A stretch of DNA of 64,000 nucleotides from Candidatus Woesearchaeota archaeon (GCA_043818175.1 JBDRGA010000016.1:14003-78002), one strand, 5' to 3'. Counted from the first letter of the stretch, positions 18,990 through 61,740 are shown. Numbers and translations: made by a program. Notes: a model not told the origin generated them from the letters alone.

Positions 18990-19059
18990 TGTTTTTGAAT
19001 ACCTCGGAAGTGAAAGAGTCAGTTCTGTAGATTTATAATACTTATGCACAATAAATACA

Positions 19060-21246: not shown

Positions 21247-21307
21247 AATGAAACAGAAAAGGAAGAATCGTTTAATTGCTTTTCCTCCGAAAAAAAGAGG
21301 AAAAAAT

Positions 21308-25771: not shown

Positions 25772-27204
25772 TGGACCCCGAACTCATCAAACGGCTTCTT
25801 GAGAAGAACATTCTGGTGTCGCCAGACACCACAGATGAAGAAGCCAGAAGGCTACTTGGCGATGCACCAGAAACCAAATTAGTTATCAATCCAAACGAAG
25901 CACCGGAATTGAATATAGTTTATGATTTCAACGAACCGCCAAAGAAACGCACAGTTCAGGACTTTGTAGGGTTATTTAATGCGAGATTCCGCGAGCTTGA
26001 AGGAATACTGAGGAATCGTGTTGAACTACAGAACCTTACCAGCATTTCGAGAGCCAAGAAAATGCAGGCCAGAGAAAGAACAGCAATTATTGGAATGGTT
26101 CTGGACAAGCGCGAAACAAAAAATCACAACATAATACTTGTCATGGAAGACCAGACCGGAAGCATAACAACAATATTCACTCAGAAAAACAAAGAAACGT
26201 TTGAAATGGTCAAAGACATAATGCTGGATGAAGTAATAGGCATAACAGGCCAGACCGCAGGAGATGCAATCTTTGCTGATAAAATAATTTTGCCAGATGT
26301 GCCAGTAACAAAAGAACTCAGAAAAGCACAAGAGGATGAATATTTGGTCGTGCTTGGAGACCCACACATAGGAAGCAAACGATTTCTAAGACACAGCTTC
26401 GGAAAGTTTCTCCAATGGATAAATGCAGAGGCGGGCACACCAGAACAAAGAGATAATGCGAAAAAAGTAAAACACATAATTGTTACTGGTGATTTGGTTG
26501 AGGGAGTCGGAATTTATCCAAACCAGGAAAGGGACTTGGAAATTCCAGACATACGTGCACAGTACGAAGCCCTAACGAGTATAATCAGTCAGATTCCACA
26601 ACGAATACGGATAACGATGTTCACAGGCAACCACGATTCTGGCAGGATGGCAGAACCCCAACCCGCCCTGGGAGACTATTATTCAGAAACGTTGCACAAA
26701 TTACCAAACGTGACGTTCGTAAGCAATCCAAGCGTAGTCAACATAGGCAGAACAGACAAGTTTGAAGGATTTGATTTGCTTCTTTACCATGGATATAGTT
26801 TAGGATACTACGGGACAAATATACCAAGCGTCAGAGCGGCAGGAGGCATGACGCGCGCGGACCTAATCATGAAATACTTTCTTCAGAGAAGACACCTTGC
26901 GCCATCTCACAAGAGCACACTGTATGTTCCCACACCTCAGAAAGACCCGCTAGTAATATCCACAATTCCCGACTTCTTCATAACCGGGCACACCCACTGT
27001 GTTACTGTAACCAATTACAGAAATATTACTTTAATTAATGGCAGTTGCTGGGCGGGAATGAGTGAAGACCAGGAAAAGAGAGGAATAACACCAGCTCCAG
27101 CAAGAATAATTCTGGTGAACTTGAAGACAAGAGCAGTAAAGATAATGAATTTCATGGACAAGACAGACATAGAAGAAGGAAGGAGCCTGGAGCTGGTTGC
27201 ATGA
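25771..27204 (+). CDS. polB: DNA polymerase D small subunit (DP1; Mre11-like phosphoesterase)
   Basis: 477 aa; OB domain plus calcineurin-like phosphoesterase motifs (VVLGDPHIG, GDLVEGVG, GNHD, GHTH). Confidence 0.85.
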   Translation: MDPELIKRLLEKNILVSPDTTDEEARRLLGDAPETKLVINPNEAPELNIVYDFNEPPKKRTVQDFVGLFNARFRELEGILRNRVELQNLTSISRAKKMQARERTAIIGMVLDKRETKNHNIILVMEDQTGSITTIFTQKNKETFEMVKDIMLDEVIGITGQTAGDAIFADKIILPDVPVTKELRKAQEDEYLVVLGDPHIGSKRFLRHSFGKFLQWINAEAGTPEQRDNAKKVKHIIVTGDLVEGVGIYPNQERDLEIPDIRAQYEALTSIISQIPQRIRITMFTGNHDSGRMAEPQPALGDYYSETLHKLPNVTFVSNPSVVNIGRTDKFEGFDLLLYHGYSLGYYGTNIPSVRAAGGMTRADLIMKYFLQRRHLAPSHKSTLYVPTPQKDPLVISTIPDFFITGHTHCVTVTNYRNITLINGSCWAGMSEDQEKRGITPAPARIILVNLKTRAVKIMNFMDKTDIEEGRSLELVA

Positions 27205-30200
27205 ACGCAAGCAAACAGATGCAGCAGTACTTCAAGGAACTAGAGAAACAGTGCTTCAAAGAGCTTGCTGTTGCCGAGTCCTGTAGGAAAAAGTCATACG
27301 ACCCGACAAAAGAAGTGGAGACAGCTCTCGCGAAGAACATGGCAGAGCGAGTAATAGGAATAATTGCAGTTGTAGCACCCCAGATACGAGGAAAAGGAGC
27401 AGAAAAAAGAATACAGGAACTCGAGAAAGAGTATGGTGTTCTCGACTGGAGAGTTGCGCTGAAAATATCTGAAGAGATTGCAAGGCAGAAATTCTGCACG
27501 TTCAAAGATGAACGGGAAGCAATGGAAGTGGGTATTCGTGCAGGATTCACATATGTTACAGTTGGTGTTGTCAGCAGTCCCTTAGAAGGATTCACAAGCC
27601 TGGAACTGAAAGACAGAATGGATGGAACGGGGAAGTATTTCTGTCTGAATTATTCTGGCCCAATTAGGAATGCAGGTGGAACAGCGGCGGCGGTAAGTGT
27701 CATAATAGGAGATTATGTTCGAGTAAAGTTCGGCTATAAAGAATACGATCCAACAGAAAAAGAAGTAAAGCGTTGTTTTGCAGAAATGATGGATTATCAT
27801 GAATGGATTGCGAATTTGCAATATGTTCCTTCGGAAGCAGAAACGGAATTCTTGTTGCAGAGAATACCTGTAGAAGTAAGTGGCGACCCAAGCGAGAAGT
27901 ACGAAGTAAGCAACATAAATTTGAAAGACCTTCCAAGAGTGCAACATAATAGATTAAGGTCGGGCTACTGTCTGATTCATTCAAGCTGCATACCTTTGAA
28001 AGCACCAAAGCTGTGGAAGCAATTGTCTGTTTGGGGAGAAGAATTCTCGATGGGACACTGGAAGTTCCTTGAAGAATTTCTCGTGCTGCAGAAGAAGATG
28101 AAAGCACAGGGAAAGAAAGCAGCAAGTGACAAGCTTGCTCCGGATTATACATTCATTCATGATCTTGTTGCTGGCAGGCCGGTATTTGGACATCCATCAA
28201 GACAAGGAGGGTTCAGGTTAAGATATGGTAGGAGCAGAACATCAGGATTCAGCGGTCAAAGTTTGCATCCAGCAACAATGGTAGTGATGAACGAATACAT
28301 TGCTACTGCAACGCAACTCAAAGTCGAAAGACCCGGAAAAGCAGCAGCGTTTACGGTTTGTGATACAATAGAAGGTCCCGTAGTAAAGTTAGAGTCGGGA
28401 GACGTGGTGTGTTTGAACAACGAAAGGGAAGCACGAAAAATACGACCACAGATAAAAGAGATAATATACGCAGGAGACATCCTGATAAACTGGGGTGATT
28501 TCCTCAACAGAGCTCACGTCTTGGCGCCGGCAGGGTATTGTGAGGAATACTGGATACAGGAAGTTGAGGAGAGAATAGTGCACTTGTTCGGTACTCTGGA
28601 CTTCGAAAAGGCAGGATACTTACTGGATGAAGAAGAAGGCAAACTTCGAAGTATGTTCTCAAATCCTTTAGGGACGAATGTAAATGCGAGCACTTCAATT
28701 AAAATGAGCACGCGGCTGGGCTGTCCATTACATCCAGCACATACATTCAAATGGCGCGCATTGTCTGCGAAGCAACTCAAGGAACTTGTCGTGTGGCTAA
28801 AGAAAGGAAAAACAATAGAGGAAAGTGAGTATAAACTCATTCTTCCATTGGATTCAGCGAAGAGATATCTCGAGCTAATTGCATGTCCCCACAAACACAT
28901 CCAGAATGAACATTCAGTCATACAGCACGAAGCATTGCTGGCGCTGAAGACACAACTGGACTTCGAAAACATAAAAGAAGAAGACCTGTCTGAAGAGGGG
29001 AACGCGCTTAATGTTATAATATCACTCGCGGCCTATCCAATCAGAGATAAATTGGGCATTTCAATAGGTGCGAGGATGGGTCGTCCCGAAAAAGCAAAGA
29101 TGAGGAAGCTCACTGGAAGCCCGCATGCACTTTTCCCAATAGGCGAACAAGGGGGAAAACTGAGAAGCTTCCAGGAAGCACTGGTGGCTGGCAATGTTGA
29201 AGCAGATTTTGGAGTTTATTGGTGTGGCAAGTGTAAGAAAGAACAAGTATTGCCAATATGTATAACTTGTGAAAAGCCAACAGAGAAGAAGAAATTCTGC
29301 ACGACCTGTGGTGTAGTTGATGAATGTCCTCACGAACCAAAACCATTCAAGCGCAGCACAATACCAATACGAGAATACTTCAATTATGCACTAAAAAAAG
29401 GAGGCACAAGCATATATCCAGACCTGATTAAAGGGGTGAGGGGCACAGTTGGCACTGAACACATACCCGAGCACCCGTTGAAGGGAATATTGCGTGCAAA
29501 ACACAGCATCTGTGTAAACAAAGACGGCACAACCCGGTATGACATTAGTGAGGTCACAATGACCCACTTCAAACCAAAAGAAGTTGGCACATCTGTGGAA
29601 AAATTAAGGGAATTGGGATATACTAGTGACGTTTATGGTAAACCATTGGACCACGAAGACCAGGTTCTCGAATTAAAAGTGCAGGATGTCGCGCTTCCCA
29701 GCTGTCCAGATAGCCCCGACCTTCCGTGTGATGAAATACTATATAGAACTGCGAACTTCATGGACGAGCTGCTCGTGAGTCTTTACGGTCAAAAACCATT
29801 CTACAATCTCCAGAACAGAGCAGACTTGGTGGGTCATCTAGTGATTGGGTTGGCTCCGCATACTTCTGCAGGCATCCTTGGGAGAATCGTTGGCTTCACA
29901 AAAACACAAGGATTCTTCGCCCACCCTCTCTATCATGCAGCAATGCGCAGAGACTGCGATGGTGATGAGAGTTGTGTTGTGTTGCTTCTTGATTGTCTTG
30001 TCAACTTCTCCAAATCTTTCTTACCCAGCAGCAGAGGAAGCACGATGGACGCACCAATAGTACTGACATACATCTTAACACCATCAGAAGTGGACGATAT
30101 GGCATTTGATGTTGATAGGGTTTGGAAGTACCCTCTGAAACTGTACAGGGCTGCAGAACAATACAAAATGCCCTGGGACGTCCCACTTGATAAAATAGGG

Positions 30201-30704
30201 AACCACCTCGGAAAGCCAGGCGAGTACGAAGGCATGGGTTTTACGCACGACACAGACAACATCAATGCAGGTGTTCTTTGCAGCGCGTACAAGCTCTTGC
30301 CAAGCATGCAGGAGAAACTCATGAGTCAAATGGACCTAGCCGAGAAACTCAGAGCAACAACAGCTTCAGAAGTGGCAGCTTTGGTGATTGAGAAACACTT
30401 CATTAGAGATATTAAGGGAAATCTTCGTAAGTTTTCGCAGCAGGAATTCAGGTGTGTTAACTGTAATGCTAAATACAGACGACCACCCTTGAAGGGAAAT
30501 TGCACTACCTGTAATGGAAAGATAATATTCACAATAGCAGAAGGAAGTGTCATTAAGTACTTGGGCCCTTCAATCAGTCTAGCAAAGAAATATGGAGTTA
30601 GCACTTATCTTCAACAGACATTGGAACTTACACAGCAGCGTATTGACGAGCTTTTTGGCAAGGACAAGGAGAAGCAGTTAGGACTTGGTGCGTGGTTTGG
30701 GTAA
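27201..30704 (+). CDS. polC: DNA polymerase D large subunit (DP2), intein-free
   Basis: 1167 aa collinear with archaeal DP2. Zn-finger cysteine clusters (CGKCKKE..CITC, CTTCG, CVNCNAKY..CTTCNG). Its start overlaps the DP1 stop by 4 nt. Confidence 0.85.
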   Translation: MNASKQMQQYFKELEKQCFKELAVAESCRKKSYDPTKEVETALAKNMAERVIGIIAVVAPQIRGKGAEKRIQELEKEYGVLDWRVALKISEEIARQKFCTFKDEREAMEVGIRAGFTYVTVGVVSSPLEGFTSLELKDRMDGTGKYFCLNYSGPIRNAGGTAAAVSVIIGDYVRVKFGYKEYDPTEKEVKRCFAEMMDYHEWIANLQYVPSEAETEFLLQRIPVEVSGDPSEKYEVSNINLKDLPRVQHNRLRSGYCLIHSSCIPLKAPKLWKQLSVWGEEFSMGHWKFLEEFLVLQKKMKAQGKKAASDKLAPDYTFIHDLVAGRPVFGHPSRQGGFRLRYGRSRTSGFSGQSLHPATMVVMNEYIATATQLKVERPGKAAAFTVCDTIEGPVVKLESGDVVCLNNEREARKIRPQIKEIIYAGDILINWGDFLNRAHVLAPAGYCEEYWIQEVEERIVHLFGTLDFEKAGYLLDEEEGKLRSMFSNPLGTNVNASTSIKMSTRLGCPLHPAHTFKWRALSAKQLKELVVWLKKGKTIEESEYKLILPLDSAKRYLELIACPHKHIQNEHSVIQHEALLALKTQLDFENIKEEDLSEEGNALNVIISLAAYPIRDKLGISIGARMGRPEKAKMRKLTGSPHALFPIGEQGGKLRSFQEALVAGNVEADFGVYWCGKCKKEQVLPICITCEKPTEKKKFCTTCGVVDECPHEPKPFKRSTIPIREYFNYALKKGGTSIYPDLIKGVRGTVGTEHIPEHPLKGILRAKHSICVNKDGTTRYDISEVTMTHFKPKEVGTSVEKLRELGYTSDVYGKPLDHEDQVLELKVQDVALPSCPDSPDLPCDEILYRTANFMDELLVSLYGQKPFYNLQNRADLVGHLVIGLAPHTSAGILGRIVGFTKTQGFFAHPLYHAAMRRDCDGDESCVVLLLDCLVNFSKSFLPSSRGSTMDAPIVLTYILTPSEVDDMAFDVDRVWKYPLKLYRAAEQYKMPWDVPLDKIGNHLGKPGEYEGMGFTHDTDNINAGVLCSAYKLLPSMQEKLMSQMDLAEKLRATTASEVAALVIEKHFIRDIKGNLRKFSQQEFRCVNCNAKYRRPPLKGNCTTCNGKIIFTIAEGSVIKYLGPSISLAKKYGVSTYLQQTLELTQQRIDELFGKDKEKQLGLGAWFG

Positions 30705-36659: not shown

Positions 36660-39600
36660 TCACATCTTACTAATCTTTCCAGGCTTGGGATGATAGATAT
36701 CTCCCTTCCTGGTTAGCTTTTCTAAGATTTCTTCTGCCTTGTCCTGGTTGATGCTCTGGTTCAGGGCTTCCTGGATAACGTCTTCCGTCTCAATTACCTT
36801 GCCGTACGTTTCAGTCAGTTGATTAATAATCTCCTTGATTTGGTGAATCTGATTACGTTCAGAAGCAGGAATACCTCCAGTGAAACGGTCAATGTCAATC
36901 TTTCCCGTTTGAGGGTCCATTCCAATCTGTTGCAAGCAGTAATGAACCAGTTCAATCGCTCTTCGGGAGTCCTTCCTTCTAATTACAGTGTCCAATCTTG
37001 TTTTAGCTGAAGCTTCACTCAAACGAACAAGCGCTTCCAACTGACGAGCAGAAATCGGTACTGCTTTAACACCACCCTCGCCTCCACCAGAAGCACGCAT
37101 TTCAACGAAGTATCTTTGGATCTCTTCCTTGGCTTCATCGCTTAGAATGGGCTTGCAGCGTATCCTAGCATAACTCACGTACTTCTTGTAGAATTCAGTC
37201 TTCAGTTCAACCGTGTCAAGAGCGTGCTCATCCTGATGCAGGTCTAGGATGAAACTAGCCATCTGCTCGTCCTTGAACTTATCGGGCATGTCTTTCACTG
37301 CAAAGATTAGGTCAAAGCGATTAATCAACGTAGAAGGCAGTTCAATCTGTTTTCCAACCATCTCGTAGGGGTCAAAACGCCCGAATTTTGGGTTTGCAGC
37401 TGCGAGAACAGTTGTTTCAGCCCTCAATGTTGCCTGAATGTTCGCTTTAGAAATAGAAATAGTCTGCTGTTCCAAAGCTTCGTGCAAAGCACTAGTATCT
37501 TCTTTAGTCATCTTATCTAGTTCGTCAATACAACAGATGCCTTTGTTCGTTAAAGGCAAGGCTCCAGCTTCCAAAGCCCAACCACGAAGGAAATCATCTT
37601 TCACAACCGAAGCAGTATTGTGAACCAAAACACCGTCAACGATGAAATTATGCGAATCCTCCACAGTTAAGTCATACACAAAGTCAAACTTTGACTTCTT
37701 CAATTCAACAGATTTCACCTTTTCCCAGAACACATCGCTGTTTGCCAGCGCGAGAAGCTCGACGTCTTCTATTTGATTCTCAAGTACAATTCTCTGCAAC
37801 GCTTCTTTGCTCAGATTGGGATGCCATCCTGCCTTTTTGAGTGGAATCTTTCTAGATTGGAGAATCTCCTTCAACCGCTCAGAAACGCCAGGAACAACAT
37901 CAATGTTTGTATTGTGCTTGGTTTTTGAAATTAATGCCAGTTTTGCCTTCTTTTTGGGGTGGCGTAATGGAATCTCTTTTGCAAATGTCTCGATGTCCTT
38001 ACCTCTTATTGATAGAACCCATTTGTCCAGTTTTCCCTGAATCTTCGAATTAACACTCGGGCTTCTGGGTCTTAATCGTGCATGCACGCCATATCTTAGG
38101 AATGCAAGCTGAAGCTGCCGTGCGAGTTTCTCTGAACAAGTCGTGAACTCGATGCACGAGCTATTATGTCCTTTACTGACGTAAACAGATCCATCTGCGT
38201 CATATAGTCCTGCGATGTATGAAGCAAGAAGTTTATTTGAAAGGTGAAGGAGTGTATTGGACATAAATATTGAAGACGATTTGGGGCTTAGTGAAATTCC
38301 GAGAGACATAAGAATCTCTCCAACAATCTTTGATGCAACTCTGCTTGCCTGTGGTCTGGTATCTGATTCTGGTTGAGTATCACATGAAAGTTGGAATTCC
38401 TTCTCAAACAAGTTTCTGAATGTGTCAAGAATGGTTGGTTCGCCGTTTGACAACCTAATGGCTATTGAATCTCCTGGAGTTTTTCTCATGTCGCCGTCGC
38501 CTGCGATGAGCCCTGCAACATGGAGAAATTCTTTTGAGAGATTGATGGGCACTTTGTGCTTCTTCCCGTTCCAGAGACTCACTGTCTGTACTCTGTGTTT
38601 CCAAGGAATCCTCGCAGCTTCAGCAAGGAGTCTCAGGTCATTAAGCTTGATGGTCCCTCTGGTTTCTGGATTCACCCAATGATGATATAGTTGGTTCTCG
38701 TTTATGCAAAGCGCGTTGGCTGCCTTTCTCACAGAACCGTATATTTCTTTCAGAATCTCAACAGATTCCTTGACCAAATCCTCAACGCCGCGCACAACAG
38801 GATTGCTCGCAATAAGGTCAACTGGGCTTTGCTCATTGACTGTGCCTCCAATTAGTTTTCTGGGTGTTCCGACAAAAGTGCCAGTTGTTATCTCAGAACT
38901 CTTAGTCCAAGACGGCTTACCACCATTTAGTACGAAGAGTTTCGTATTTGCAGTAAGTTGAACCCGTTTTCCGCTATCAAGCGTTACCTCATACATGAAT
39001 TCAGGAGCCTCAAGACGCCATATTGCAGAGGGATGCTTAGAATGTAACTTCATGTCTTTAGATAAAGACTGTATTTTGACATCTGTCACGTTATCTCTTT
39101 TCCACACACCTGATCTGAACTCAAGAGGAAATTCCATTCTTGATTCAACAACCTCTTGGATTGTTTCACATCCTCCTGGATTTGTAAGAACCATGCTTTC
39201 AGGGCTCACGCACAATCCAGCACCGGACGCACCTTTACCAGAAACAAACCTTGATTTAGGCGCAACTTTAGCAATTCTCCTCAACAATTGTGATTTTCCC
39301 GAACCAGGGTCTCCAATGAGCAGAATATGTATGTCTCCTCTCCTAACTACACCATCGGTCATGCTCTTTCTCACACCACCAAACAATTGCAATAACAGCG
39401 CTTCCTTGATTTTATCGTGACCGTAAATGCTTGGAGCTAAACTACCAATCAATGATTCGTAAACATCAGGCCTTTTGGCGAAATCCTCTATTCCAGCCAG
39501 TTCTTCAGGAGAAATAGCCATCTCAGAGAAATCTTCAAGCACTGGTTCTACAAAATTTGCTTCGCACATCAAATCAAAGCGAGTGCTCTGTCCGCCTTGT

Positions 39601-40295
39601 TGCAAGGTAATTGGAACCTCTTTTACGATTCCAACAACCTTTATCTTTGCACCAGGATTGGTTCTTTTCTCTGTTATTGGAGAGACAAGATCGTTCTTCA
39701 GGAAGATGTTGAACCTTTTAGGTTGCTCTCCGCCTTCTAATTCGTCAGGAGACTCTTCTAAAGTAATCTTCTGCGCATCGACCAGTTCCTTACCAATCAA
39801 ACGGAACTTACCTTTTCTACCACAACCACATCTTGTTGGCTCCTTGAATTTAGTATCGAGCTGTAGCACCGCAATAATATTGCCACAGGAAGGGCATTCA
39901 AAACGAGCAGCCGTTACTTGAGGCCGGACATCTGTCTTCTGCTTTACGATACCCTGCATCTCGAGAAATTTGCCAATATGTCTGGAACGAATATCTCTGA
40001 TCATAATCTGCTGACTTTCAGGAAGGTCCTTGAATCGTATCTGGAAGTTCTTTACTTCTCCAGCAAGATCAAACCGGTCAACGGCAGCAGAAGCAGCAGC
40101 CAGTACTTCTTCAGGGTCTTCGAGCAGCAGGTCAGCTAGTTCAGGATTGAACTTCGCGAGCTCTCCAAGCTCCACAACGAGAAACTTATGCCCCTTCGAG
40201 GCCTGTTTTACCAGGTCTGCGTAATGATGTTCCTCGAGGAACTTGTGGAAAAGCTCAATCTGCTTGGCTGCATCGATTGTTTGAGCTTCCTGCAT
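36660..40295 (-). CDS. mcm: MCM replicative helicase interrupted by one large intein
   Basis: N-terminal Zn motif CPSCGN...CGCG, Walker A GDPGSGKSQ, Walker B CCIDELDKM, sensor and arginine-finger regions, and a C-terminal wH. It is 1211 aa, of which ~679 aa is extein. Confidence 0.88.
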   Translation of the reverse strand: MQEAQTIDAAKQIELFHKFLEEHHYADLVKQASKGHKFLVVELGELAKFNPELADLLLEDPEEVLAAASAAVDRFDLAGEVKNFQIRFKDLPESQQIMIRDIRSRHIGKFLEMQGIVKQKTDVRPQVTAARFECPSCGNIIAVLQLDTKFKEPTRCGCGRKGKFRLIGKELVDAQKITLEESPDELEGGEQPKRFNIFLKNDLVSPITEKRTNPGAKIKVVGIVKEVPITLQQGGQSTRFDLMCEANFVEPVLEDFSEMAISPEELAGIEDFAKRPDVYESLIGSLAPSIYGHDKIKEALLLQLFGGVRKSMTDGVVRRGDIHILLIGDPGSGKSQLLRRIAKVAPKSRFVSGKGASGAGLCVSPESMVLTNPGGCETIQEVVESRMEFPLEFRSGVWKRDNVTDVKIQSLSKDMKLHSKHPSAIWRLEAPEFMYEVTLDSGKRVQLTANTKLFVLNGGKPSWTKSSEITTGTFVGTPRKLIGGTVNEQSPVDLIASNPVVRGVEDLVKESVEILKEIYGSVRKAANALCINENQLYHHWVNPETRGTIKLNDLRLLAEAARIPWKHRVQTVSLWNGKKHKVPINLSKEFLHVAGLIAGDGDMRKTPGDSIAIRLSNGEPTILDTFRNLFEKEFQLSCDTQPESDTRPQASRVASKIVGEILMSLGISLSPKSSSIFMSNTLLHLSNKLLASYIAGLYDADGSVYVSKGHNSSCIEFTTCSEKLARQLQLAFLRYGVHARLRPRSPSVNSKIQGKLDKWVLSIRGKDIETFAKEIPLRHPKKKAKLALISKTKHNTNIDVVPGVSERLKEILQSRKIPLKKAGWHPNLSKEALQRIVLENQIEDVELLALANSDVFWEKVKSVELKKSKFDFVYDLTVEDSHNFIVDGVLVHNTASVVKDDFLRGWALEAGALPLTNKGICCIDELDKMTKEDTSALHEALEQQTISISKANIQATLRAETTVLAAANPKFGRFDPYEMVGKQIELPSTLINRFDLIFAVKDMPDKFKDEQMASFILDLHQDEHALDTVELKTEFYKKYVSYARIRCKPILSDEAKEEIQRYFVEMRASGGGEGGVKAVPISARQLEALVRLSEASAKTRLDTVIRRKDSRRAIELVHYCLQQIGMDPQTGKIDIDRFTGGIPASERNQIHQIKEIINQLTETYGKVIETEDVIQEALNQSINQDKAEEILEKLTRKGDIYHPKPGKISKM
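37617..39212 (-). mobile_element. MCM intein (~532 aa) with a LAGLIDADG homing-endonuclease domain
   Basis: Inserted after SGKGASGAGL. It begins CVSPESMVL and ends GVLVHN, with T as the +1 extein residue. Two LAGLIDADG blocks are present (VAGLIAGDGDM and LASYIAGLYDADGSV). Coordinates are derived by residue counting, +/- a few nt. Confidence 0.8.
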
Positions 40296-45069: not shown

Positions 45070-45936
45070 ATGCAATGCTGCGTGTGTAACAACAATGCAA
45101 TCATCACGAAGCCAGAGCCGCGCTGTTCTGATCACTTCAAGGAATACTTTGAAGCGACTGTTAAGGACACGATTAAACGCTTCTCGTTGATTTCGCCAGG
45201 TGAGAAGATTGTTGTTGCAGCTTCCGGAGGAAAGGACAGTATGACCTTGTTATATTTGTTGCATTCTTTCGGGTATCACGTTCACGCGCTGGCCGTAGAC
45301 GAGGGCATCAAAGGATACCGAGACGAAACTCTTGAGCACCTTAGAGCATTCTGCACGCCAAGAAGCATACCTTTGAAGATTGTTTCGTTCAAGGAAACAA
45401 CGGGAAAGACGTTGGACGAGATGAAGCCAGAACACCCATGTAGTACTTGTGGCGTACTAAGAAGAAAGGCTCTGAACGATAATGCAGAAGGATACGATAA
45501 GATTGCATTAGGACATAACTTAGATGATGAAGCCCAAAGCATTCTTATGAACCTGTTCAGGAACCAGATACCTTTGCTCTTTCGCTTGGGACCAATGAGC
45601 AAAACACAAGAAGGCATGACTCCAAGGATAAAACCTTCGTATTTTCTTTCTGAAAAGGAAGTCGCAACGTACGCACACCTGATGAAACTAAGTCCAGCAT
45701 GGAGCGAATGCCCGAATGCAATTGATGGTTACCGTTCAGACGTGAGAAACTGGCTGAACAAACAGGAAGAAGAACATTCTGGCTCTAAGAGAAACATAAT
45801 CAACTGGTTCCTTAAGATAAAAGAAGAAAAGATTCTGGAAGAAAAAGAAGCAAAGAAATGCGCTAAGTGCGGGGCGCCGAGCTCTGCAGAACTATGTCGC
45901 GCGTGTCAACTTCAAGTTAAACCTACTCGAGTTTAA
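45070..45936 (+). CDS. ncsA: tRNA 2-thiolation PP-loop ATPase (TtuA/NcsA/Ncs6 family)
   Basis: PP-loop SGGKDS, an N-terminal CxxC...C zinc finger (CCVCNN..C), a central CSTCG and a C-terminal CAKCG...CRAC zinc finger. Confidence 0.8.
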   Translation: MQCCVCNNNAIITKPEPRCSDHFKEYFEATVKDTIKRFSLISPGEKIVVAASGGKDSMTLLYLLHSFGYHVHALAVDEGIKGYRDETLEHLRAFCTPRSIPLKIVSFKETTGKTLDEMKPEHPCSTCGVLRRKALNDNAEGYDKIALGHNLDDEAQSILMNLFRNQIPLLFRLGPMSKTQEGMTPRIKPSYFLSEKEVATYAHLMKLSPAWSECPNAIDGYRSDVRNWLNKQEEEHSGSKRNIINWFLKIKEEKILEEKEAKKCAKCGAPSSAELCRACQLQVKPTRV

Positions 45937-46177
45937 TCTTGATCTTTTTGCCTTTGAGTTTTGCCTCAATTGCGGGAGCGACAGTTTGGCCTTGGAAAGT
46001 TGTCACGTCAAATTCTTTCATGAATTTCTTGGTAACACTTTCAGAACCAGTCACGATATAGATGCCATTCTCCAGAAGAATAGCGACTCCATTATTTGCT
46101 GCGTTAGTGACACTGCTAACTTTTGATTCCATTTCTTTTCCCATATGATCACCTTTACTTTGTTGTTTCCAAATCAA
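45923..46177 (-). CDS. Hypothetical small protein
   Basis: 84-aa ORF immediately downstream of two paralogous small membrane proteins; no motif. Confidence 0.35.
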   Translation of the reverse strand: MIWKQQSKGDHMGKEMESKVSSVTNAANNGVAILLENGIYIVTGSESVTKKFMKEFDVTTFQGQTVAPAIEAKLKGKKIKIKLE

Positions 46178-46451
46178 TTTTTATTCCGACAACCCATTTG
46201 GCGAATACATTGTAGAGCCACGCGCCTATTATTCCGGAGACGAAGCCCATTATTCCGTATAGTATGATGTACAGGATGCCCGCTATCAAAACACCAAGCG
46301 CAATCCAATAACCATAATTCTGGCCCGCAAAGCCAAGCGTCAAACCAAGCAAAATGATTGCGATGAATGCAACGACCAGAATGCTCATCATACCCAACGC
46401 GCAAAGCAATCCAGTCTTCAAAACGTCAATTCGTTTGAGCTCCTGTTTCAT
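46155..46451 (-). CDS. Small membrane protein, paralog A of a tandem pair
   Basis: 98 aa with 3 TM helices; shares YxIMGFxSxxIxGxLYNxxAK with the next ORF. Confidence 0.5.
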   Translation of the reverse strand: MKQELKRIDVLKTGLLCALGMMSILVVAFIAIILLGLTLGFAGQNYGYWIALGVLIAGILYIILYGIMGFVSGIIGAWLYNVFAKWVVGIKIDLETTK

Positions 46452-46765
46452 TCTTTCACCAGTTCAACACCAATACCACCTATCTTCTTTGCCCAGAAGT
46501 TGTAAAGGCCACCAGCAATAAATGCCGAAATAAAACCCATTATTGCATAAAAAATGGGGAAGATGATTATCGCCAGGGCGCCAAGCCCTAACATCCAGGC
46601 ATTCACAGGATCGACGGTTGCTGCAGTGTCAACGGGCACGCTGCTCATGGCCCACGAGAATAACGCGAAGAATATACCAACGATAATGCCAAGGACGGCA
46701 TACGTCAGGGTCATTATTTTTGCTAGAGACATTACATCAAGATGCTTTACAACGTTTCTTGTCAT
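46448..46765 (-). CDS. Small membrane protein, paralog B of a tandem pair
   Basis: 105 aa; clear sequence similarity to paralog A; overlaps it by 4 nt. Confidence 0.5.
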   Translation of the reverse strand: MTRNVVKHLDVMSLAKIMTLTYAVLGIIVGIFFALFSWAMSSVPVDTAATVDPVNAWMLGLGALAIIIFPIFYAIMGFISAFIAGGLYNFWAKKIGGIGVELVKE

Positions 46766-46811: not shown

Positions 46812-48284
46812 TCACAACGGTTCAACAGATTGAGGGAGGGTCTTCACGAAATTCAGGCGCTCTTCTCTGTTTATCTTGTCGCTCTTGAACATATAACGGC
46901 TCCTGCAATACCTGCAGCACGGTTCATTGTTCATTTTGAAGAATTTTGGGGGTATGTCCTCTTCCACAACACGAGAAATGCAGTTCTGGTTCTGGCACAG
47001 AAGATAGACAAACTTCTTCGTGATTGTTCCTTTGTTGATGTAATTTATTGTTGTCTCGGGCGATATCAAGGCCGCCCGTTTCAAGTCACGATCAGTCAAC
47101 GATGGAAGGTCCGTCTTCAATATGTTTGTGCTCTTTTGGGGAATGTGTGCAAATATGGCCAGCTTCCCTCGCTCCTTGAGCTTCAGTTGCATTCCGATTT
47201 CTAGTTCAAGTCCCTTTGCTATGTGGTCAATTACAACACCATCTTTTATGTCATTTATTATCCCTGGTTCTCTGTTCTTTGAACCATGTCTGAGCAGAAT
47301 GTTGTTTCCATTTTCCAACAAAGGATTCAGGATGCCTGAGAATTGAACAATTTCGGCGTCTTTGAACATACTGTAAAGAAGCGCTTTCCTCAGAAATATG
47401 CCATTCTCCGCCTGCTTGAAGAATCCCTGTGCATCGCTGAAGTAAACAGCATGGTCAATTTCTGCCAGTTCGCTGTTGACAGGCAAAGGATGCAAAACCT
47501 TTCCCTTGAATTCACGAACCCGTTCAAGTGTGATCCTGTACTTGTCCATTAAATCATGGACTTGAGAGGCAGAACTACCCATTCTCTCCAATTGAGGTCG
47601 GGTCATGTAGAAAACATCAACGTTCTTCATAACATCAACAACTTCAGCATGTCGAACGACTTTTACGCCTTTCTTAGCAAGGTGCTCTGTAAGTGAAGTG
47701 GGCATTCCAAGAAAATCCTCAGCACACCAATGAATCTCAACGTTATCATAATTGGCTAAAGCTAATGTCTGGGAATGTATAGTTCTTCCATGCGCTAGAT
47801 CACCTCCATAACCCACTTTTATTCCATCGAGCTTTTCTCTCAAAGTGCTCATCGTGAAAAGGTCAAGCAATGCCTGCGTGGGGTGCTCGTTCTTTCCATC
47901 GCCCCCATTAATAACAGGAATCTCAGAAACGTCAGCAGCCCACTGAACACTTCCATCTTTAGGATGTCGCATCACGATAGCGTCAGCATGATTGGCCTCA
48001 AACATCTTTATCGTATCTCTTATGCTTTCCTTCTTCGTTACGGACGTGCCCTCAATACCGCTGAAACCACCTGCTCTTCCACCAAGCTCTACAATTGCAG
48101 TTATGAAACTCTGCCTTGTCCTTGTGCTTGGCTCGTAGAAAAGGTTTGCAAGCCGGAAAGTGCGAGGAAGCTGTAGTGAATACCTCTTGCCAGATTCCTC
48201 AATTTGCTTCATCTTCCCGGCCAACGCGAGAAGCTTGTTGATTTCGTCCTTCGAGAAGTCCTGAATGGAAATTACATCCCCCAT
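46812..48284 (-). CDS. pyrBI: Aspartate carbamoyltransferase with fused catalytic (PyrB) and regulatory (PyrI) chains
   Basis: N-terminal ~310 aa carry STRTR, HPTQ and HPLP ATCase motifs. The C-terminal ~150 aa match PyrI (GVVIDHI..., zinc site CQNQNC...CCRYC). Confidence 0.8.
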   Translation of the reverse strand: MGDVISIQDFSKDEINKLLALAGKMKQIEESGKRYSLQLPRTFRLANLFYEPSTRTRQSFITAIVELGGRAGGFSGIEGTSVTKKESIRDTIKMFEANHADAIVMRHPKDGSVQWAADVSEIPVINGGDGKNEHPTQALLDLFTMSTLREKLDGIKVGYGGDLAHGRTIHSQTLALANYDNVEIHWCAEDFLGMPTSLTEHLAKKGVKVVRHAEVVDVMKNVDVFYMTRPQLERMGSSASQVHDLMDKYRITLERVREFKGKVLHPLPVNSELAEIDHAVYFSDAQGFFKQAENGIFLRKALLYSMFKDAEIVQFSGILNPLLENGNNILLRHGSKNREPGIINDIKDGVVIDHIAKGLELEIGMQLKLKERGKLAIFAHIPQKSTNILKTDLPSLTDRDLKRAALISPETTINYINKGTITKKFVYLLCQNQNCISRVVEEDIPPKFFKMNNEPCCRYCRSRYMFKSDKINREERLNFVKTLPQSVEPL

Positions 48285-48325: not shown

Positions 48326-48628
48326 TCATAATCTCTTTCCCACACTAATTGCTGAGATTATTGATAATATGATTCCAGCAATTGCAGTCAACGTGCCAGG
48401 GAACGGGATTAGTGTTACGAACGCAAGAACAACAGCCGCGATTGAATTACCCTTTACTTCGTTGAGCAGTATTGAAAAAATCAAGTTCATAACTGCCAGG
48501 GGAATAACCCACCATGCAGCAATAAGATAAACAAAAGGAATCAGCCCAATCATGAATCCTCCACCTACTAGAATGATCGATGCGAACAGAATTACTCGCA
48601 TCACCTTCTTGTCTGATGAAGAAACCAT
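48326..48628 (-). CDS. Small membrane protein
   Basis: 100-aa hydrophobic ORF with 3 TM helices. Confidence 0.4.
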   Translation of the reverse strand: MVSSSDKKVMRVILFASIILVGGGFMIGLIPFVYLIAAWWVIPLAVMNLIFSILLNEVKGNSIAAVVLAFVTLIPFPGTLTAIAGIILSIISAISVGKRL

Positions 48629-48644
48629 AAAAAAGAATTAGCCC

Positions 48645-49091
48645 TTATTTCTTGGCTGCAGGTTTTGCTGCCACTGGTGCTGCTTTCTGTTCCTTCCACG
48701 CCAGGAATCCCAATACAATCCACTGTGCAATTGGAACAACCATTAATATTCCCAAAGGTCCTGGATAGTTTCTCCTTTCCGAGATCTTCCACCACCACCA
48801 GATTGTTGCTGCAATCACAACTACAATTCCAAGGAACGGTATGAACGAAGCCACCACAACTATTAAGGCAGTCCACCACGGAACCTGGGCAATCATCGGC
48901 AACAGGAATAGATTCGCTATCGGAATCCACGCCAGCCAGGGATATTTTGTCTTTGTCTTCTGGGCTATTACCATCGTAGCCCACGCCTGGTAGATGTACG
49001 CAGCAATGAATAGTATCACGAAGAACACCATCATTCCAGCGAACGCACCCAACAGCGCACCCATACCATAAGCATCAAGCATGTTTGCCAT
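48645..49091 (-). CDS. Membrane protein with a Trp-rich motif and an Ala/Lys-rich tail
   Basis: 148 aa with 4 TM helices; WWWWK motif; C-terminal AAPVAAKPAAKK. Confidence 0.4.
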   Translation of the reverse strand: MANMLDAYGMGALLGAFAGMMVFFVILFIAAYIYQAWATMVIAQKTKTKYPWLAWIPIANLFLLPMIAQVPWWTALIVVVASFIPFLGIVVVIAATIWWWWKISERRNYPGPLGILMVVPIAQWIVLGFLAWKEQKAAPVAAKPAAKK

Positions 49092-54227: not shown

Positions 54228-55127
54228 ATGATTGTCAAGAAGATAATTCCTTTGTTTCTGGTCTTAGTTTTGACTACTTTTGCAAATGCAGCAACCCTCT
54301 CAGACTTTCCCTCAATCTTTGTGGAGAAAGGCTGGGAATTACAGGCTAACTTCGTTGTTGGGGAAAGGGCTTCCAGCAGCGATGTACTTCTTGGTGTTGA
54401 TCTGGCAACAAGGCTTTCACAATGGGTAAGTCAGGAAAATGAAAACAGACCTCTTGACAACCAGATGGAATATGACCGCAAGGGAATAAGCAAGACTGCG
54501 GACATGGACGACCTTGGTGATAATTATTTTGCAATCGGACTTCCATGTAAGAACAAGATTGTTTCTAAGTTGTTGAATACCACCAGTTGTTCAGCATTCA
54601 AAACAGGAGATGGTTATCTCGCACTGTTCATTTCAAACGAAACCAAGATTATTGTGATAACCGGAGGGGATTATGCTGGAATGGAAAAGGCGAAGAATGT
54701 GCTTTACAATTTTGAAGAATATAACTTGAACAGCGAAAATATTTTGATACGAGAATCAAACCCGTATGTGCTAATTGACATGAAATTCAAGTCTACAAAT
54801 GAAACAGAAGACATAGTTCTTAATGAAACAGACGAGACAAGCGTAAGCGAGGATTCACAAATAAAGAAAGAGGGATGCTCTGGCTGTCTTGTTTCAGGTG
54901 TTTGTTATTCGATTGGAAGCATATCAAACGGTACGTACTGCAGTTCTGCAGGTGACTTTGAACCGCAGATTGGTGAAGGTGAAGCGTGCGGTTCGAGTTA
55001 TCAATGTACCATTCCTTTAATGTGCATACAGAATGTATGTGAGAAACCTGAAGCGCCGGAAATGAAGAGCGAAGGTTTCTTCCAAGCAATTGCGAACTTC
55101 TTCAAGCGATTATTTGGGAAGAGTTAA
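54228..55127 (+). CDS. Secreted protein with a Cys-rich C-terminal module
   Basis: Signal peptide (IIPLFLVLVLTTFANA); C-terminal CSGCLVSGVCYS...CSS...CGSSYQC...CIQNVC. Confidence 0.5.
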   Translation: MIVKKIIPLFLVLVLTTFANAATLSDFPSIFVEKGWELQANFVVGERASSSDVLLGVDLATRLSQWVSQENENRPLDNQMEYDRKGISKTADMDDLGDNYFAIGLPCKNKIVSKLLNTTSCSAFKTGDGYLALFISNETKIIVITGGDYAGMEKAKNVLYNFEEYNLNSENILIRESNPYVLIDMKFKSTNETEDIVLNETDETSVSEDSQIKKEGCSGCLVSGVCYSIGSISNGTYCSSAGDFEPQIGEGEACGSSYQCTIPLMCIQNVCEKPEAPEMKSEGFFQAIANFFKRLFGKS

Positions 55128-57246: not shown

Positions 57247-60200
57247 ATGCGGGTCGGAGTCATCATTCCAGTACTGTTCTTGCTTCTTGTGGTTGTCTCA
57301 AGCGAGACACTTGCTGTTACTCCACCAGTTACGGCAGGAACGCCAAGTTATCCGTATGGGGCAGATGCGTGGAATGTCGCAACCCGTGGCGACAAGACAT
57401 CCAATCCAACAATATATTACGCTGGCGAAACCGTGAACGTTGGCAGTTTTCCGTTCAGCCGTTTGAGTGGTAGCGCAGATCAGTACTCGAGTATTCTTAC
57501 TAAAATAAACGATTATTCTACCATTGCAGGGGCGTGCTCACACAATTCAGAAAATGCAGAACAGTCAACAGACAGTAATGAGGGTGACTGTGCCAGAACA
57601 GGAGATAAATACCGCGAATTCTTTTGGCAAACTGAGGTATTCATCCCAGCACATGTAAAAAAAATTCGCCTCGTTGCGTGGGTTGACAATGATGCTGCAG
57701 TGTACATTGCACCATACACGCGGACAGGAAACACGTACAACTTTGACTTGTTGGACTTCAAACCTACAAGTAGTAAATCCATATTTTATTCTCCTGGAAA
57801 CGGGGGGAACATCGATGTTTCAAATTCAAAATATGGGAAAGGGCTTATACTTTGGGGTGGGTCATCGTGTCGGAGTGTAGCGTTTGGTTACGCTTTTTTT
57901 TGTAAGCCCGACACACCAACACATGCAGATTTAGTTCAGGGAGCCGACTTTCAACCAGGATGGAATGTGCTTGGAATTTGGTACAGGGACCATGAAGGGG
58001 GTGACCACCTAACAATCAAGATGCTTGACCCAGATAAGCCGGAGCCGGAAACAAGCGACATGCTCCTTGAAGGAATAAAGCTCAGAACAGACATGCCACT
58101 CATCTCATACCGAAGTGTATTCTCGGCAATAAGTACAAATTCCCTCGCGGACACAGTACCAGCCAAACACCAGAATGATGGTCGCTCGGTCAATTATATT
58201 TCACTCAGGCAGGCTATGGGTACTCGTGAAGGAGATATTTCTGGTGGGTGCTGGGACGGTATTGACAACGATGGAAACTGGATGGCTCCTAAAGACTTGA
58301 TAGATTCAGAAGGCAGAAATTATCCTGACGGAATAATTCAAGCAGCAGAACTGAAGGATCCAGTTACTGGAAGTTATTTGAATGATGATCATAAATTGCA
58401 GACGACAGAGTACACATACAATGGAACAATAATAAACAGACCACCAGTATATTACGACACAGAATACAAGACGCCGTCCGAAGGCAACTTACAGCCAAAC
58501 ATCGGAGAATACGGCGTTGACTGTTTGGACAAGAGTTGTGATGGTAAACCAGGACCGGGTGGCGTAACATGCAATTGGGCTGACCAGTCTTTATCTTATC
58601 CGACAGAATCAGATTGCACTGACGGCGAAGACAATGACTTCGATGGCAAAATAGACCTTCTCGACGAGGACTGCTTGAACGCGCAGTGTGGTATCCCTCC
58701 AGGCACAACAATCTCTCAAATAATTGACTCTTTGAATTCAGCAGAAGACACGTATGATGCTGGAGCATTAGATGGAAGTGACGCCTGCTGTGGGGATGAT
58801 TTGCCTGAGCTTGGATGTGCTTCTCCTGAGGGTCAGTGTTCTGGCACACTGAATGATTGTAGAGGAACACCTGTGGATGATTTTTCGAGGGTGTGTGCTT
58901 CTAAGAACGGGCCAGACTGTAATGCAGACTACAGGTGTGCTTGGGATGGTGACTATTGCTGGGAAGCGGGATGTTCCGACTTGTCTGTGGACGCGTGTAA
59001 AAAACTAGACGGGTGTTCTTTGAAAACGTGCAGTGATTATAATCATTCGACGTGTCTTAGTCCACAATGCTCATGGGAAGAAACATGTCCTGCAGGCACA
59101 CCTCAAACGTATACGACGCTTGGTGACCTCGGCTACATCACCCCCGACGGAAGGTACTTCTGTGGAAAGGACAGCAAAGATGGTGCCATAACATATGACG
59201 GCACTGGCTCTTGGAAATGGTGGGACGCGCAAGCTATGGGTTCTCCCTTCACGATACACGAAGTGAAACCAGAAACAGACGTAGCGAGCAATGGAGAAGC
59301 GTGGTATTATTGCACTGCGCCAGAGTTTGCCACAGACACAGAGCAAAAGGTTGAGAAATGGGCCATCTTGCCAGAACCAAGTTTTGTAACTGGAATTGTA
59401 TTTGGCCAGTATCAGCAGTGGCCCGATAGGTGCACAATCAACGAAACAACAAAGAAGTGCATACTAAACAGCGAACCCGATGGGTTTGCCGACTGTGATA
59501 TAAACAAGAACACCCAAATCGATCCAGGCGAGGACTGGAGATCGTTTGCGAGCGTATATGCTGGTGTTTATCCTCCTATTACCACAGGGTCATTGTATTG
59601 TTCTGATGGCATCGAGGGTTTTATGACTTTGTGCGACGCAATCAATCCAGAAAAGGGCAACTACCCTTGGCTTGCAAACATAGAGAAATGGAAGGATGCA
59701 GCACTCGAATGTGATAAAACTGAAACGTCAGTACAAAAATGTCCAGATGCCGGAACAAGCGACGCAACAGTTCCAAAACGAGGATGGCGTCCAGATTTCA
59801 ATCCAGGATGCACGCCGGAAAACACAGTATTCGCAGATGGAACTTCAGGTTGTGCAGACGGAATAGATAATGACTTTGATAATCTTGTAGACTGCAATGA
59901 CCGTCTGTGTGATGGGCTGCTGGGTCCAGATGGGCAGATCTGTGAGTTCCAAGGTGAGCTTAATTGTCAGGACAAACAGGATGATGACGGGGACACATTA
60001 ATAGACTGTTCAGACCCTGACTGTATATTCGAAGCGAGTTGCAGGTATGAATCACCAAAAGTAGCGCCACATTACCAGGCATTGCTTTGCTTGCAAGGCA
60101 ACAATCCAGAATATCCACAATTCCAGGAATGCTGTGGTGCGTCTGCTTGCTCAAATACAGACGCAATTCTTCTTGGAGCCGCAAAATTGTACGGACCTGG

Positions 60201-61740
60201 TACGACCGCTGAAGTGGCAATGGACTTTAACGAACTCGTAAACAGCGCGATTTTGGATAAAATTCGACCGATACGAACTACAAACAGCATTCCAATTCAG
60301 AGAATTGTCAGTGCAGGCGACACACTTGAATTTGACTACATAACAAACAATCCCGCGGGAAGCATCACGCTCACAGGAACAGCAAGCGGGACATATTCTC
60401 TCTGGGAAAATACCGTAAACAAACCAGCCAATTTCGGAATCATCACAGGATATTGGTGGCATGTGCGAATACCAATGGATACTTCTGGTGAGATATTGAG
60501 TGTCAAGTTCACAGCTCCGGCATACGTTGACAACATACAAATCGTTCCTGGTGATGCAGAAGGCGAACAAAGATATTGCTCGTACGGTGGTTCGTGGAAC
60601 ACAAGTCTTGTTGACCCAGCAACCTGCAACAGTGTTGTTGCTCTGGGATACGGAAGTTATGGTTGGACGGGAACAATGTGTTGTGGTGACAATACAAATG
60701 AAGAGTACTACAAAGACAGTAACGCAGGATGCTTTGCCCGAAACACAATATATGCAGGCCAGAGAGTTGGAGATGTCTTACACAACACGTCTTTGAATAA
60801 CCTGCTTTATTATGATGGAAAGTTCTGGGCGTGCGTTGAAAATGTCTCTGGTTTAAGCAGGGCCGTTGTGGGTGCAATAACCACTACTGAATCAAGGAAA
60901 ACTCCAAGCTTCACAATAAAATCCCAGTGGTACTGCGATCCGGACCACACTTGGAAAGTGCTGAAGGACCTGAAAGTTGAGAATGTCCTTGCAGGAAAAC
61001 TGGCAGACATGGGTGACGAGTCAGGAAAGTCATACACGCTCTTCTGTGACGATGAGCAAAGAAGCATTAACAACGTCGAATCAGTTAATCCCAGCACGCA
61101 AGGAGCATTCTGTGTGCTCACCGGACCCGAGACAGAAAATCAGAAAGAAGTGTTTGTTGGCTTCGTGCTTGACCGAAAAGCAGGCGCGAACATAAACGAT
61201 TACCTTACCTCTTTACAGGAGAACTATGTTCCAGAGTGGCAGGATGATGAATCTGAAATGATACCTGCAGATTACTGTGATGATGTAACAAATCCAAACG
61301 TAAACGAATTCTTCGAAGCATGCACGAATGGCGGAGTGAAGAACTACAAGGTCTACTATAACAAGGCATTTGGCATAGTCATAATTGGAAGAGAACCAGC
61401 ATCAACTAATTGGGCTGATTCCATGTGGCGAGCCGTCAGAAATTTCTTCAGGAATATATTCGGGTACGTTCCACCATCACTGGGACGCCCCGTGCTGCCC
61501 AGCGAGATACCGTCTCAATTCGAAAAACTATACTTACACGTACAAGATGGCAAGAGCATAGTGGGTGCGTATTACAATAATGCATTCCTTGTTAACTATA
61601 CTAACTATGATGGCACGGCAGTCCGCAGACTTGCTTCAGCCAATGGACTCACATACGATCCATCAAGCAACACGATATACTCAAAGCCAGGGGACTTGAA
61701 AGCATGGCAACAAGTAACTTCCGCACTGAGGCCGCGCTGA
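57247..61740 (+). CDS. Giant secreted Cys/Asp-rich surface protein (1497 aa) with CxDGxDNDxDxxxDxxDxDC repeats
   Basis: Signal peptide (VIIPVLFLLLVVVSSETLA). At least four copies of an acidic Cys-bracketed module are present: GGCWDGIDNDGNWM, CTDGEDNDFDGKIDLLDEDC, CADGIDNDFDNLVDCNDRLC and CQDKQDDDGDTLIDCSDPDC. Many additional Cys are present. Confidence 0.7.
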   Translation: MRVGVIIPVLFLLLVVVSSETLAVTPPVTAGTPSYPYGADAWNVATRGDKTSNPTIYYAGETVNVGSFPFSRLSGSADQYSSILTKINDYSTIAGACSHNSENAEQSTDSNEGDCARTGDKYREFFWQTEVFIPAHVKKIRLVAWVDNDAAVYIAPYTRTGNTYNFDLLDFKPTSSKSIFYSPGNGGNIDVSNSKYGKGLILWGGSSCRSVAFGYAFFCKPDTPTHADLVQGADFQPGWNVLGIWYRDHEGGDHLTIKMLDPDKPEPETSDMLLEGIKLRTDMPLISYRSVFSAISTNSLADTVPAKHQNDGRSVNYISLRQAMGTREGDISGGCWDGIDNDGNWMAPKDLIDSEGRNYPDGIIQAAELKDPVTGSYLNDDHKLQTTEYTYNGTIINRPPVYYDTEYKTPSEGNLQPNIGEYGVDCLDKSCDGKPGPGGVTCNWADQSLSYPTESDCTDGEDNDFDGKIDLLDEDCLNAQCGIPPGTTISQIIDSLNSAEDTYDAGALDGSDACCGDDLPELGCASPEGQCSGTLNDCRGTPVDDFSRVCASKNGPDCNADYRCAWDGDYCWEAGCSDLSVDACKKLDGCSLKTCSDYNHSTCLSPQCSWEETCPAGTPQTYTTLGDLGYITPDGRYFCGKDSKDGAITYDGTGSWKWWDAQAMGSPFTIHEVKPETDVASNGEAWYYCTAPEFATDTEQKVEKWAILPEPSFVTGIVFGQYQQWPDRCTINETTKKCILNSEPDGFADCDINKNTQIDPGEDWRSFASVYAGVYPPITTGSLYCSDGIEGFMTLCDAINPEKGNYPWLANIEKWKDAALECDKTETSVQKCPDAGTSDATVPKRGWRPDFNPGCTPENTVFADGTSGCADGIDNDFDNLVDCNDRLCDGLLGPDGQICEFQGELNCQDKQDDDGDTLIDCSDPDCIFEASCRYESPKVAPHYQALLCLQGNNPEYPQFQECCGASACSNTDAILLGAAKLYGPGTTAEVAMDFNELVNSAILDKIRPIRTTNSIPIQRIVSAGDTLEFDYITNNPAGSITLTGTASGTYSLWENTVNKPANFGIITGYWWHVRIPMDTSGEILSVKFTAPAYVDNIQIVPGDAEGEQRYCSYGGSWNTSLVDPATCNSVVALGYGSYGWTGTMCCGDNTNEEYYKDSNAGCFARNTIYAGQRVGDVLHNTSLNNLLYYDGKFWACVENVSGLSRAVVGAITTTESRKTPSFTIKSQWYCDPDHTWKVLKDLKVENVLAGKLADMGDESGKSYTLFCDDEQRSINNVESVNPSTQGAFCVLTGPETENQKEVFVGFVLDRKAGANINDYLTSLQENYVPEWQDDESEMIPADYCDDVTNPNVNEFFEACTNGGVKNYKVYYNKAFGIVIIGREPASTNWADSMWRAVRNFFRNIFGYVPPSLGRPVLPSEIPSQFEKLYLHVQDGKSIVGAYYNNAFLVNYTNYDGTAVRRLASANGLTYDPSSNTIYSKPGDLKAWQQVTSALRPR

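Follow-up and report, generated by a model that had tools for sequence, protein, structure and literature searches.

Does the archaeal locus considered here encode a genuine single-chain aspartate carbamoyltransferase (ATCase), and if so, how does it relate to the fused enzymes already described? The locus is an open reading frame (ORF) within a 64,000-nucleotide (nt) stretch of DNA from a Candidatus Woesearchaeota archaeon (GCA_043818175.1, JBDRGA010000016.1:14003-78002); the whole of this stretch is referred to here as the window. An earlier note on its sequence had described catalytic (PyrB) and regulatory (PyrI) chains fused into one ORF, and the order of the Pfam domains, the homologues, the linker between the chains and a structure model all agree with that description. 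We consider it very probable that the ORF specifies a genuine class-B-type ATCase in which PyrB and PyrI are made as one polypeptide, with catalytic, zinc-binding and regulatory roles included.

The ORF lies on the minus strand, which the note had not specified, and the six motifs that had been picked out (STRTR, HPTQ, HPLP, GVVIDHI, CQNQNC and CCRYC) do all fall in its frame. The polypeptide runs from PyrB (amino acids [aa] 3-306) through a linker of 36 aa to PyrI (aa 343-464) and ends in a tail of 26 aa (Table 1). A database protein, P0001, is 100% identical to it, comes from a contig of 103 kb and carries the label 'MAG: aspartate carbamoyltransferase [Candidatus Woesearchaeota archaeon]' (MAG, metagenome-assembled genome). 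Against TIGR00670, the NCBIfam equivalog model for ATCase, the window protein scored 299.4 bits, above the cutoff of 236.95, and PF02729 and PF00185 exceeded their gathering scores at 139 and 66 bits; the allosteric-domain profile PF01948 matched aa 343-425 at 49 bits, compared to a gathering score of 25. The best solved relative of the protein was the Pyrococcus abyssi catalytic chain 1ml4 (E 4e-66). When the 184 C-terminal residues were used as the sole query, the significant matches were solved regulatory chains only, namely the PyrI chains of M. jannaschii (2yww), S. acidocaldarius (1pg5_B), M. profunda (2be7_D) and E. coli (1acm_B). A structure model of the monomer contained both the catalytic-chain and the regulatory-chain fold. 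Models for other transcarbamylase substrates (ornithine, putrescine, N-acetylornithine and YgeW) reached 15-131 bits, and because all of them miss their cutoffs by far while TIGR00670 is passed, an alternative substrate was rejected.

Table 1. Position of the fused ATCase ORF, its domains and its motifs in the window
Feature	Residues	Nucleotides	Strand	Basis or content
Whole pyrB-pyrI fusion ORF		46812..48284	minus	ATG start, 490 aa, stop codon 46812-46814; ORF list
PyrB carbamoyl-phosphate-binding domain	3-146	47847..48278	minus	Pfam PF02729 (OTCace_N) 1.6e-40; STRTR, K84, R106, HPTQ inside
PyrB aspartate-binding domain	153-305	47370..47828	minus	OTCace (PF00185) 5.3e-18; R167, R229, Q231, HPLP inside
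Inter-chain linker, 36 aa	307-342	47259..47366	minus	clade-wide motif F.G.L...L..GNN.L.R
PyrI allosteric (nucleotide-binding) domain	343-425	47010..47258	minus	Pfam PF01948 7.3e-13; GVVIDHI inside
PyrI zinc domain	429-464	46893..47000	minus	PyrI_C (PF02748) 3.2e-4; Cys430, Cys435, Cys457, Cys460
C-terminal tail, 26 aa	465-490	46815..46892	minus	clade alignments and AlphaFold2 model
STRTR motif	53-57	48114-48128	minus	
HPTQ motif	134-137	47874-47885	minus	
HPLP motif	265-268	47481-47492	minus	
GVVIDHI motif	349-355	47220-47240	minus	
CQNQNC motif	430-435	46980-46997	minus	
CCRYC motif	456-460	46905-46919	minus	

The same fusion recurs in independent data. All 119 other listed homologues (clusters at 52-58% identity), drawn from NCBI, JGI, ENA and Logan assemblies, are single chains with PyrB and PyrI domains; their lengths are about 495-536 aa in 118 cases and 447 aa in the remaining one. 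The bacterial member P0060 recurs, with the same sequence throughout, on 21 contigs. We also used tblastn as a control for the split arrangement. Among the matches listed, 44 species-representative loci matched both halves, and in 41 of these the first ORF ended after 299-313 aa with pyrI separate, consistent with the earlier statement that separate adjacent genes are the rule. The split loci include Vibrio, Photobacterium, Clostridia, Bacteroidales, Thermoplasmata and Halobacteriales; the three single-ORF loci, from an Acidobacteriota MAG, an uncultured bacterium and a Spirochaetaceae MAG, all belong to the same fused clade as the window protein, which we call the window-type clade. The 36-aa linker has no counterpart in the split loci. 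The earlier note had placed the junction at about 47300-47400; the true junction is the linker itself, at aa 307-342 (nt 47259-47366), and its DNA contains no long homopolymer run and no other feature suggesting a frameshift. Because the homologues, the conserved linker and the structure model all agree, we judge the fusion to be, in all likelihood, a genuine gene and not the product of a lost stop codon.

The residues expected of a working enzyme are in place. ATCase ligand residues are, in E. coli numbering, S-T-R-T-R, K84, R105, H-P-x-Q, R167, R229/Q231 and H-P-L-P, and the expected carbamoyl-phosphate and aspartate residues were all found in the window protein (STRTR, K84, R106, HPTQ, R167, R229, Q231 and HPLP). 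When conservation was scored in an alignment of 41 window-type clade members, catalytic S53, T54, R55, T56, K84, R106, H134, Q137, R167, R229, Q231 and L267 were invariant. So were the zinc cysteines C430, C435, C457 and C460, as well as N432 and N434 between the first two; the four cysteines (C-x4-C ... C-x2-C) align with the E. coli PyrI zinc site, CPNSNC...CKYC. Invariant positions of the allosteric domain were D353, H354 and K390, together with K424 at the C-terminal edge of that domain, and N414 was kept in at least 90% of the members. D353/H354, K390, N414 and K424 align to D19/H20, K60, N84 and K94 of the E. coli r-chain, which we take to be nucleotide-site residues.

For the window protein, catalysis, the binding of zinc, control by nucleotides and the oligomeric state are predictions. 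We propose that its N-terminal 306 residues would form the usual catalytic trimer and carry out the first committed reaction of de novo pyrimidine synthesis, from carbamoyl phosphate and aspartate to N-carbamoyl-aspartate. The C-terminal portion would fold around the Cys4 zinc site, associate with a catalytic chain and, through a putative site, bind nucleotide effectors that shift activity. Fusion would fix a 1:1 stoichiometry and tether the regulator to the enzyme in stable association. The fused chains could assemble as a single trimer or as a hexamer in which regulatory dimers bridge two trimers; the fused Thermotoga enzyme is said in its original abstract to be 'assembled in trimers'.

Both segments that the fusion adds are conserved. 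The linker is near-constant in length across the window-type clade (35-39 residues), its motif F.G.L...L..GNN.L.R is common to the clade, and a G[NE]N.[LV] pattern, searched for anywhere in the protein, was present in 108 of the 120 listed proteins. In the model the linker comprises a short helix (aa 321-324), a strand (aa 329-331) and a low-confidence stretch (aa 336-340). Tail positions K470, E475, L483, P484 and I487 are conserved in the clade, and the AlphaFold2 model places a helix at aa 473-482, with a predicted local distance difference test (pLDDT) score of 86-93 across the tail. As aligned, the tail region measures 20-29 residues in the clade vs. 6-12 in more distant fused lineages, including P0207, a fused protein of the Thermotoga type. 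These patterns suggest that the linker and the tail are under selection.

In many clade members the PyrI domain opens exactly on a methionine, and the majority consensus there reads MFIDKI..GTVIDHL (alignment A1); the window protein lacks it and reads GIINDIK (aa 342-348). The databases also contain short proteins, 150-200 aa long, with a match to the window-type PyrI (P0121-P0124 and P0129), which may be pieces of longer genes or relatives without the fusion. Some of 150-160 aa (P0121 and P0129) begin at the position of this methionine, and for these internal initiation is a third possibility.

Regulatory subunits of class B ATCases are described as 'fused or unfused' (PMC6022934). For the fused case, PMC4581275 gives the Thermotoga maritima enzyme, citing Chen et al. 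1998 (its reference 6; J Bacteriol 180:6389), whose title, as cited there, calls the enzyme allosteric; the fused Thermotoga enzyme is assigned to the dodecameric class (PMC4581275). The Thermotoga-type family is represented by the NCBIfam model NF009916 / PRK13376 ('bifunctional aspartate carbamoyltransferase catalytic subunit/regulatory subunit', cutoff 800 bits). The window protein resembles this type in having the catalytic and then the regulatory chain in one polypeptide, with NF009916 aligning over both halves, and in a linker of similar length (36 aa vs. ~41 aa in P0207). In contrast, NF009916 gave 179.6 bits for the window protein and 159-193 for six clade members, compared to 808 for P0207 as the positive control; P0207 is 25-30% identical to the window clade, the linker sequences are unalignable, and the tail region has 25 residues in the window protein vs. 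10 in P0207. Moreover, the Thermotoga type was sister to the window-type clade in 0 of 200 bootstrap neighbor-joining (NJ) trees of the PyrB domain. By these comparisons, the window protein lies outside the curated Thermotoga-type family.

The earlier note had called such fusions rare, with Thermotoga as the known precedent. Thermotoga does stand as the biochemical precedent in the literature, although the window protein is not of that type. An exhaustive HMMER search with the linker-PyrI-tail segment as query yielded 96 cluster representatives at 50% identity, about 20 of which are fused (488-534 aa), with linkers of 32-43 aa whose sequences are unrelated between lineages. Since the other listed homologues are fused without exception (119 of 119) and at least about 20 fused clusters can be counted at 50% identity, 'rare' is an overstatement.

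Compared to the classical class B ATCases with separate pyrB and pyrI (E. coli c6r6, P. abyssi, M. jannaschii and S. acidocaldarius), the window protein retains the catalytic residues, the Cys4 zinc site and VIDHI; its best solved relatives are 1ml4, 2rgw and 2yww, and the model contains both folds. Unlike them, it is encoded by one gene, has the additional 36-aa linker and a longer tail, is ~9 aa shorter between the allosteric and zinc domains, has AH in place of KY and does not reach the PyrI equivalog model TIGR00240.

The members of the window-type clade found in public MAGs are annotated simply as 'aspartate carbamoyltransferase' and match the window protein in architecture, linker motif, zinc site and tail; examples come from Woesearchaeota B3_Woes (P0064), Acidobacteriia (P0060), Spirochaetes (P0028 and P0078) and Aminicenantes (P0045). 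The clade was monophyletic in 175 of 200 bootstraps of the NJ trees. The backbone of these trees is weak, with the unfused sequences monophyletic in only 22 of 200, and we therefore make no statement on whether one or several fusion events took place. The window protein forms the longest branch of the core clade and is its most divergent member (52-58% identity to the other core members, which share 55-90% among themselves), and it differs from most members in a PyrI_C match below the Pfam threshold and in the missing methionine. By sequence, it can be placed as a divergent member of a large fused clade present in Woesearchaeota and several bacterial phyla. Clade members occur in clearly archaeal contexts (contig L001, with PCNA, primase and Hef) and in clearly bacterial ones (contig L002, with phosphoketolase, acetate kinase and MacB/FtsX), and Woesearchaeota-labelled members are up to 65-67% identical to bacterial members. 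Identity of this level across domains suggests transfer between archaea and bacteria, whichever way it ran.

We tentatively put forward a broader proposal, which we regard as possible but doubtful: that the window-type clade, with its order of PyrB, GNN linker, PyrI and C-terminal helix, is a fusion lineage separate from the Thermotoga type, with a structured linker and tail maintained by selection and altered inter-trimer contacts (KY to S/A-H), and that it has passed between DPANN archaea and bacteria, among them Spirochaetota, Acidobacteriota and Aminicenantes. If it is a separate lineage, assembly or allosteric switching may take a form that has not been described for ATCase.

Several observations weigh against the view that the ORF encodes a regulated ATCase of class B type. 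The scan for PyrB and PyrI profiles that the earlier note had proposed put TIGR00670, PF02729, PF00185 and PF01948 above their thresholds, and the standalone-PyrI models TIGR00240 and NF002063 fell short. PF02748 (PyrI_C) scored 20.9 bits (E 3.2e-4), slightly below its gathering score of 23.4; for each of the 119 other listed relatives, the precomputed Pfam assignments include it. The divergence of the regulatory half shows in 48.6 bits against TIGR00240 (cutoff 148.55) and 41.4 bits against NF002063 (cutoff 171). By the criterion of these last two models, the regulatory half is a divergent PyrI-type domain and not an equivalog of standalone PyrI. A deletion of ~9 residues separates it from solved PyrI chains between the allosteric and zinc domains. 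In the catalytic half, GDLKYGRT of P. abyssi is replaced by GDLAHGRT in the window protein and by GDLSHGRT in the family consensus. The KY of this motif is K164/Y165 in E. coli numbering, and with the pair replaced, E. coli-style T-state contacts may not apply, suggesting that the inter-trimer contacts of E. coli are not those used in the window-type enzyme. We found no published activity, zinc, effector or oligomer data for any member of the window-type clade, and there was no pyr gene among the 40 other scanned ORFs of the 64-kb window. The earlier note had also taken the fusion to show that this reduced genome keeps de novo pyrimidine regulation; that goes further than the evidence, given this result and given that nucleotide regulation is predicted from conserved residues.

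The lack of pyr genes among the scanned ORFs raises the question of whether the fused gene is an orphan, acquired horizontally by a reduced DPANN genome whose de novo pathway is otherwise incomplete, and having another role or decaying. Nucleotide synthesis is missing in many DPANN archaea, with variation between subgroups discussed in PMC8421398, and both the cross-domain identity described above and the position of the window protein on the longest branch of its core clade would fit acquisition from elsewhere. The catalytic and zinc residues are nevertheless all intact, so there is no sign of decay, and the window is a fraction of a genome (a related Woesearchaeota assembly has a contig of 1.0 Mb). 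Relatives of the gene also keep pyrimidine company. The closest listed homologue, P0002 (58% identity), sits directly beside carA, carB, pyrF, pyrD, pyrC, pyrE and a cytidine/dCMP deaminase gene, which links the fused family to pyrimidine synthesis; judged from gene content, the context of this cluster looks bacterial. In Woesearchaeota, the fused gene of P0115 has OMP (orotidine monophosphate)-decarboxylase- and phosphoribosyltransferase-domain genes, of pyrF and pyrE type, ~5-6 kb away and a thymidylate-kinase-domain gene ~1 kb upstream, while in Woesearchaeota B3 and an Acidobacteriia lineage the fused gene stands alone. Since pyrimidine-synthesis genes are reported across Woesearchaeota subgroups (PMC8421398), an ATCase in this group is unsurprising, and we consider it unlikely that the gene is an orphan.

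The P0002 cluster (L084 830-9970 and 10001-11551) is compact and adjoins Pta-AckA genes and a NiFeSe hydrogenase gene.

The divergence of the regulatory half could also mean that the fusion is real and that its PyrI part no longer binds effectors, serving as a structural or assembly module in an ATCase that is unregulated or regulated differently. The weak PyrI scores (49 bits for PF01948, in addition to the shortfalls with TIGR00240 and PyrI_C) would be expected from such a loss, as would the deletions relative to solved PyrI chains, a regulatory-chain N-terminus that is tethered and not free, and the replacement of the K164/Y165 equivalents. Against this, D353/H354, K390 and K424 are invariant, and N414 is retained in at least 90%, in 41 members with 52-58% identity to the window protein; the preservation of pocket residues at such divergence argues for selection on the nucleotide pocket. 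The four zinc ligands and both asparagines of the C.N.NC motif are likewise invariant, and Chen et al. 1998, as cited in PMC4581275, describe the fused Thermotoga enzyme as allosteric in their title. We give little credence to a loss of effector binding and retain the reading of a single-chain ATCase with its regulatory role included. As for an assembly or sequencing artefact, in which a lost stop codon or a frameshift merged adjacent pyrB and pyrI, the usual separation of these genes (41 of the 44 loci among the matches listed, with the pyrB stop after 299-313 aa) and the origin of the window in a MAG speak for it, but it is scarcely credible given a linker that is unmatched in split loci and conserved in sequence and length across the clade, the 119 single-chain homologues from independent assemblies, the 21 contigs encoding P0060 and junction DNA with no homopolymer run.

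The window itself is archaeal, encoding ribosomal proteins L3 and L4, Orc1/Cdc6, both PolD subunits, an intein-containing MCM, TBP, Hef and primase, in agreement with the Woesearchaeota (DPANN) label of P0001. Around the fused gene, on its own strand, lies a series of small ORFs for membrane proteins that match no Pfam family, and a PP-loop ATPase, a MiaB-like radical-SAM enzyme and a pyridoxal phosphate-dependent enzyme are encoded nearby. The flanks of the gene (45923-46765 and 48326-49091, minus strand) contain five short ORFs (84-148 aa), all lacking Pfam matches and most of them membrane-protein-like by sequence; two of these, at 46155-46451 and 46448-46765, show C-terminal paralogy (47% identity over 36 aa, E 5e-8). 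Only ~41-46 nt separate the fused gene from the flanking ORFs, so co-transcription is possible. Scans for bacterial-type promoters and terminators around the gene rose no higher than the chance level, with 6 vs. 5.8 expected and 2 vs. 3.2 expected, respectively, archaeal promoters being outside the models of the tool. No tRNA genes were found in the window. A block of Hef helicase-nuclease, M48 peptidase and primase genes is common to the window (15252-21339) and to the Woesearchaeota B3 contig L001 (16356-21298); it lies ~5 kb from the fused ATCase gene in B3 and ~25 kb from it in the window, indicating that synteny has been rearranged.

Elsewhere in the window, the MCM replicative helicase gene (36660-40295, minus strand, 1211 aa) carries an intein with a LAGLIDADG homing-endonuclease domain, inserted inside the MCM P-loop domain (Pfam Intein_splicing at aa 378-893 and LAGLIDADG_3 at aa 690-775). 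On the plus strand at 24548-30704, Orc1/Cdc6 is followed directly by the genes for the small (DP1) and large (DP2) subunits of PolD, an arrangement that might mark a replication-origin region. An ORF of 1497 aa (57247-61740, plus strand) had no Pfam match at E <= 1e-3, and the ORF upstream of it (54228-55127) matched an S-layer outer domain weakly; cell-surface proteins may be encoded here.

Single-chain ATCases as a kind have been known since 1998, and the window-type clade is already in public databases under the plain name 'aspartate carbamoyltransferase'. What is new is that this clade is distinct from the characterized Thermotoga type, is biochemically uncharacterized and is common to DPANN archaea and bacteria. 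ATCase is the textbook model of allostery with separate catalytic and regulatory chains, and natural fusions show that regulation can be hard-wired; single-chain ATCases are also handy for structural studies and for engineering. Nor are such fusions peculiar to Thermotoga, in that a large clade with its own conserved linker and tail extends across DPANN archaea and several bacterial phyla. For the Woesearchaeote, the gene indicates that at least the first committed step of pyrimidine synthesis is encoded in the genome, which bears on the host dependence of this archaeon.
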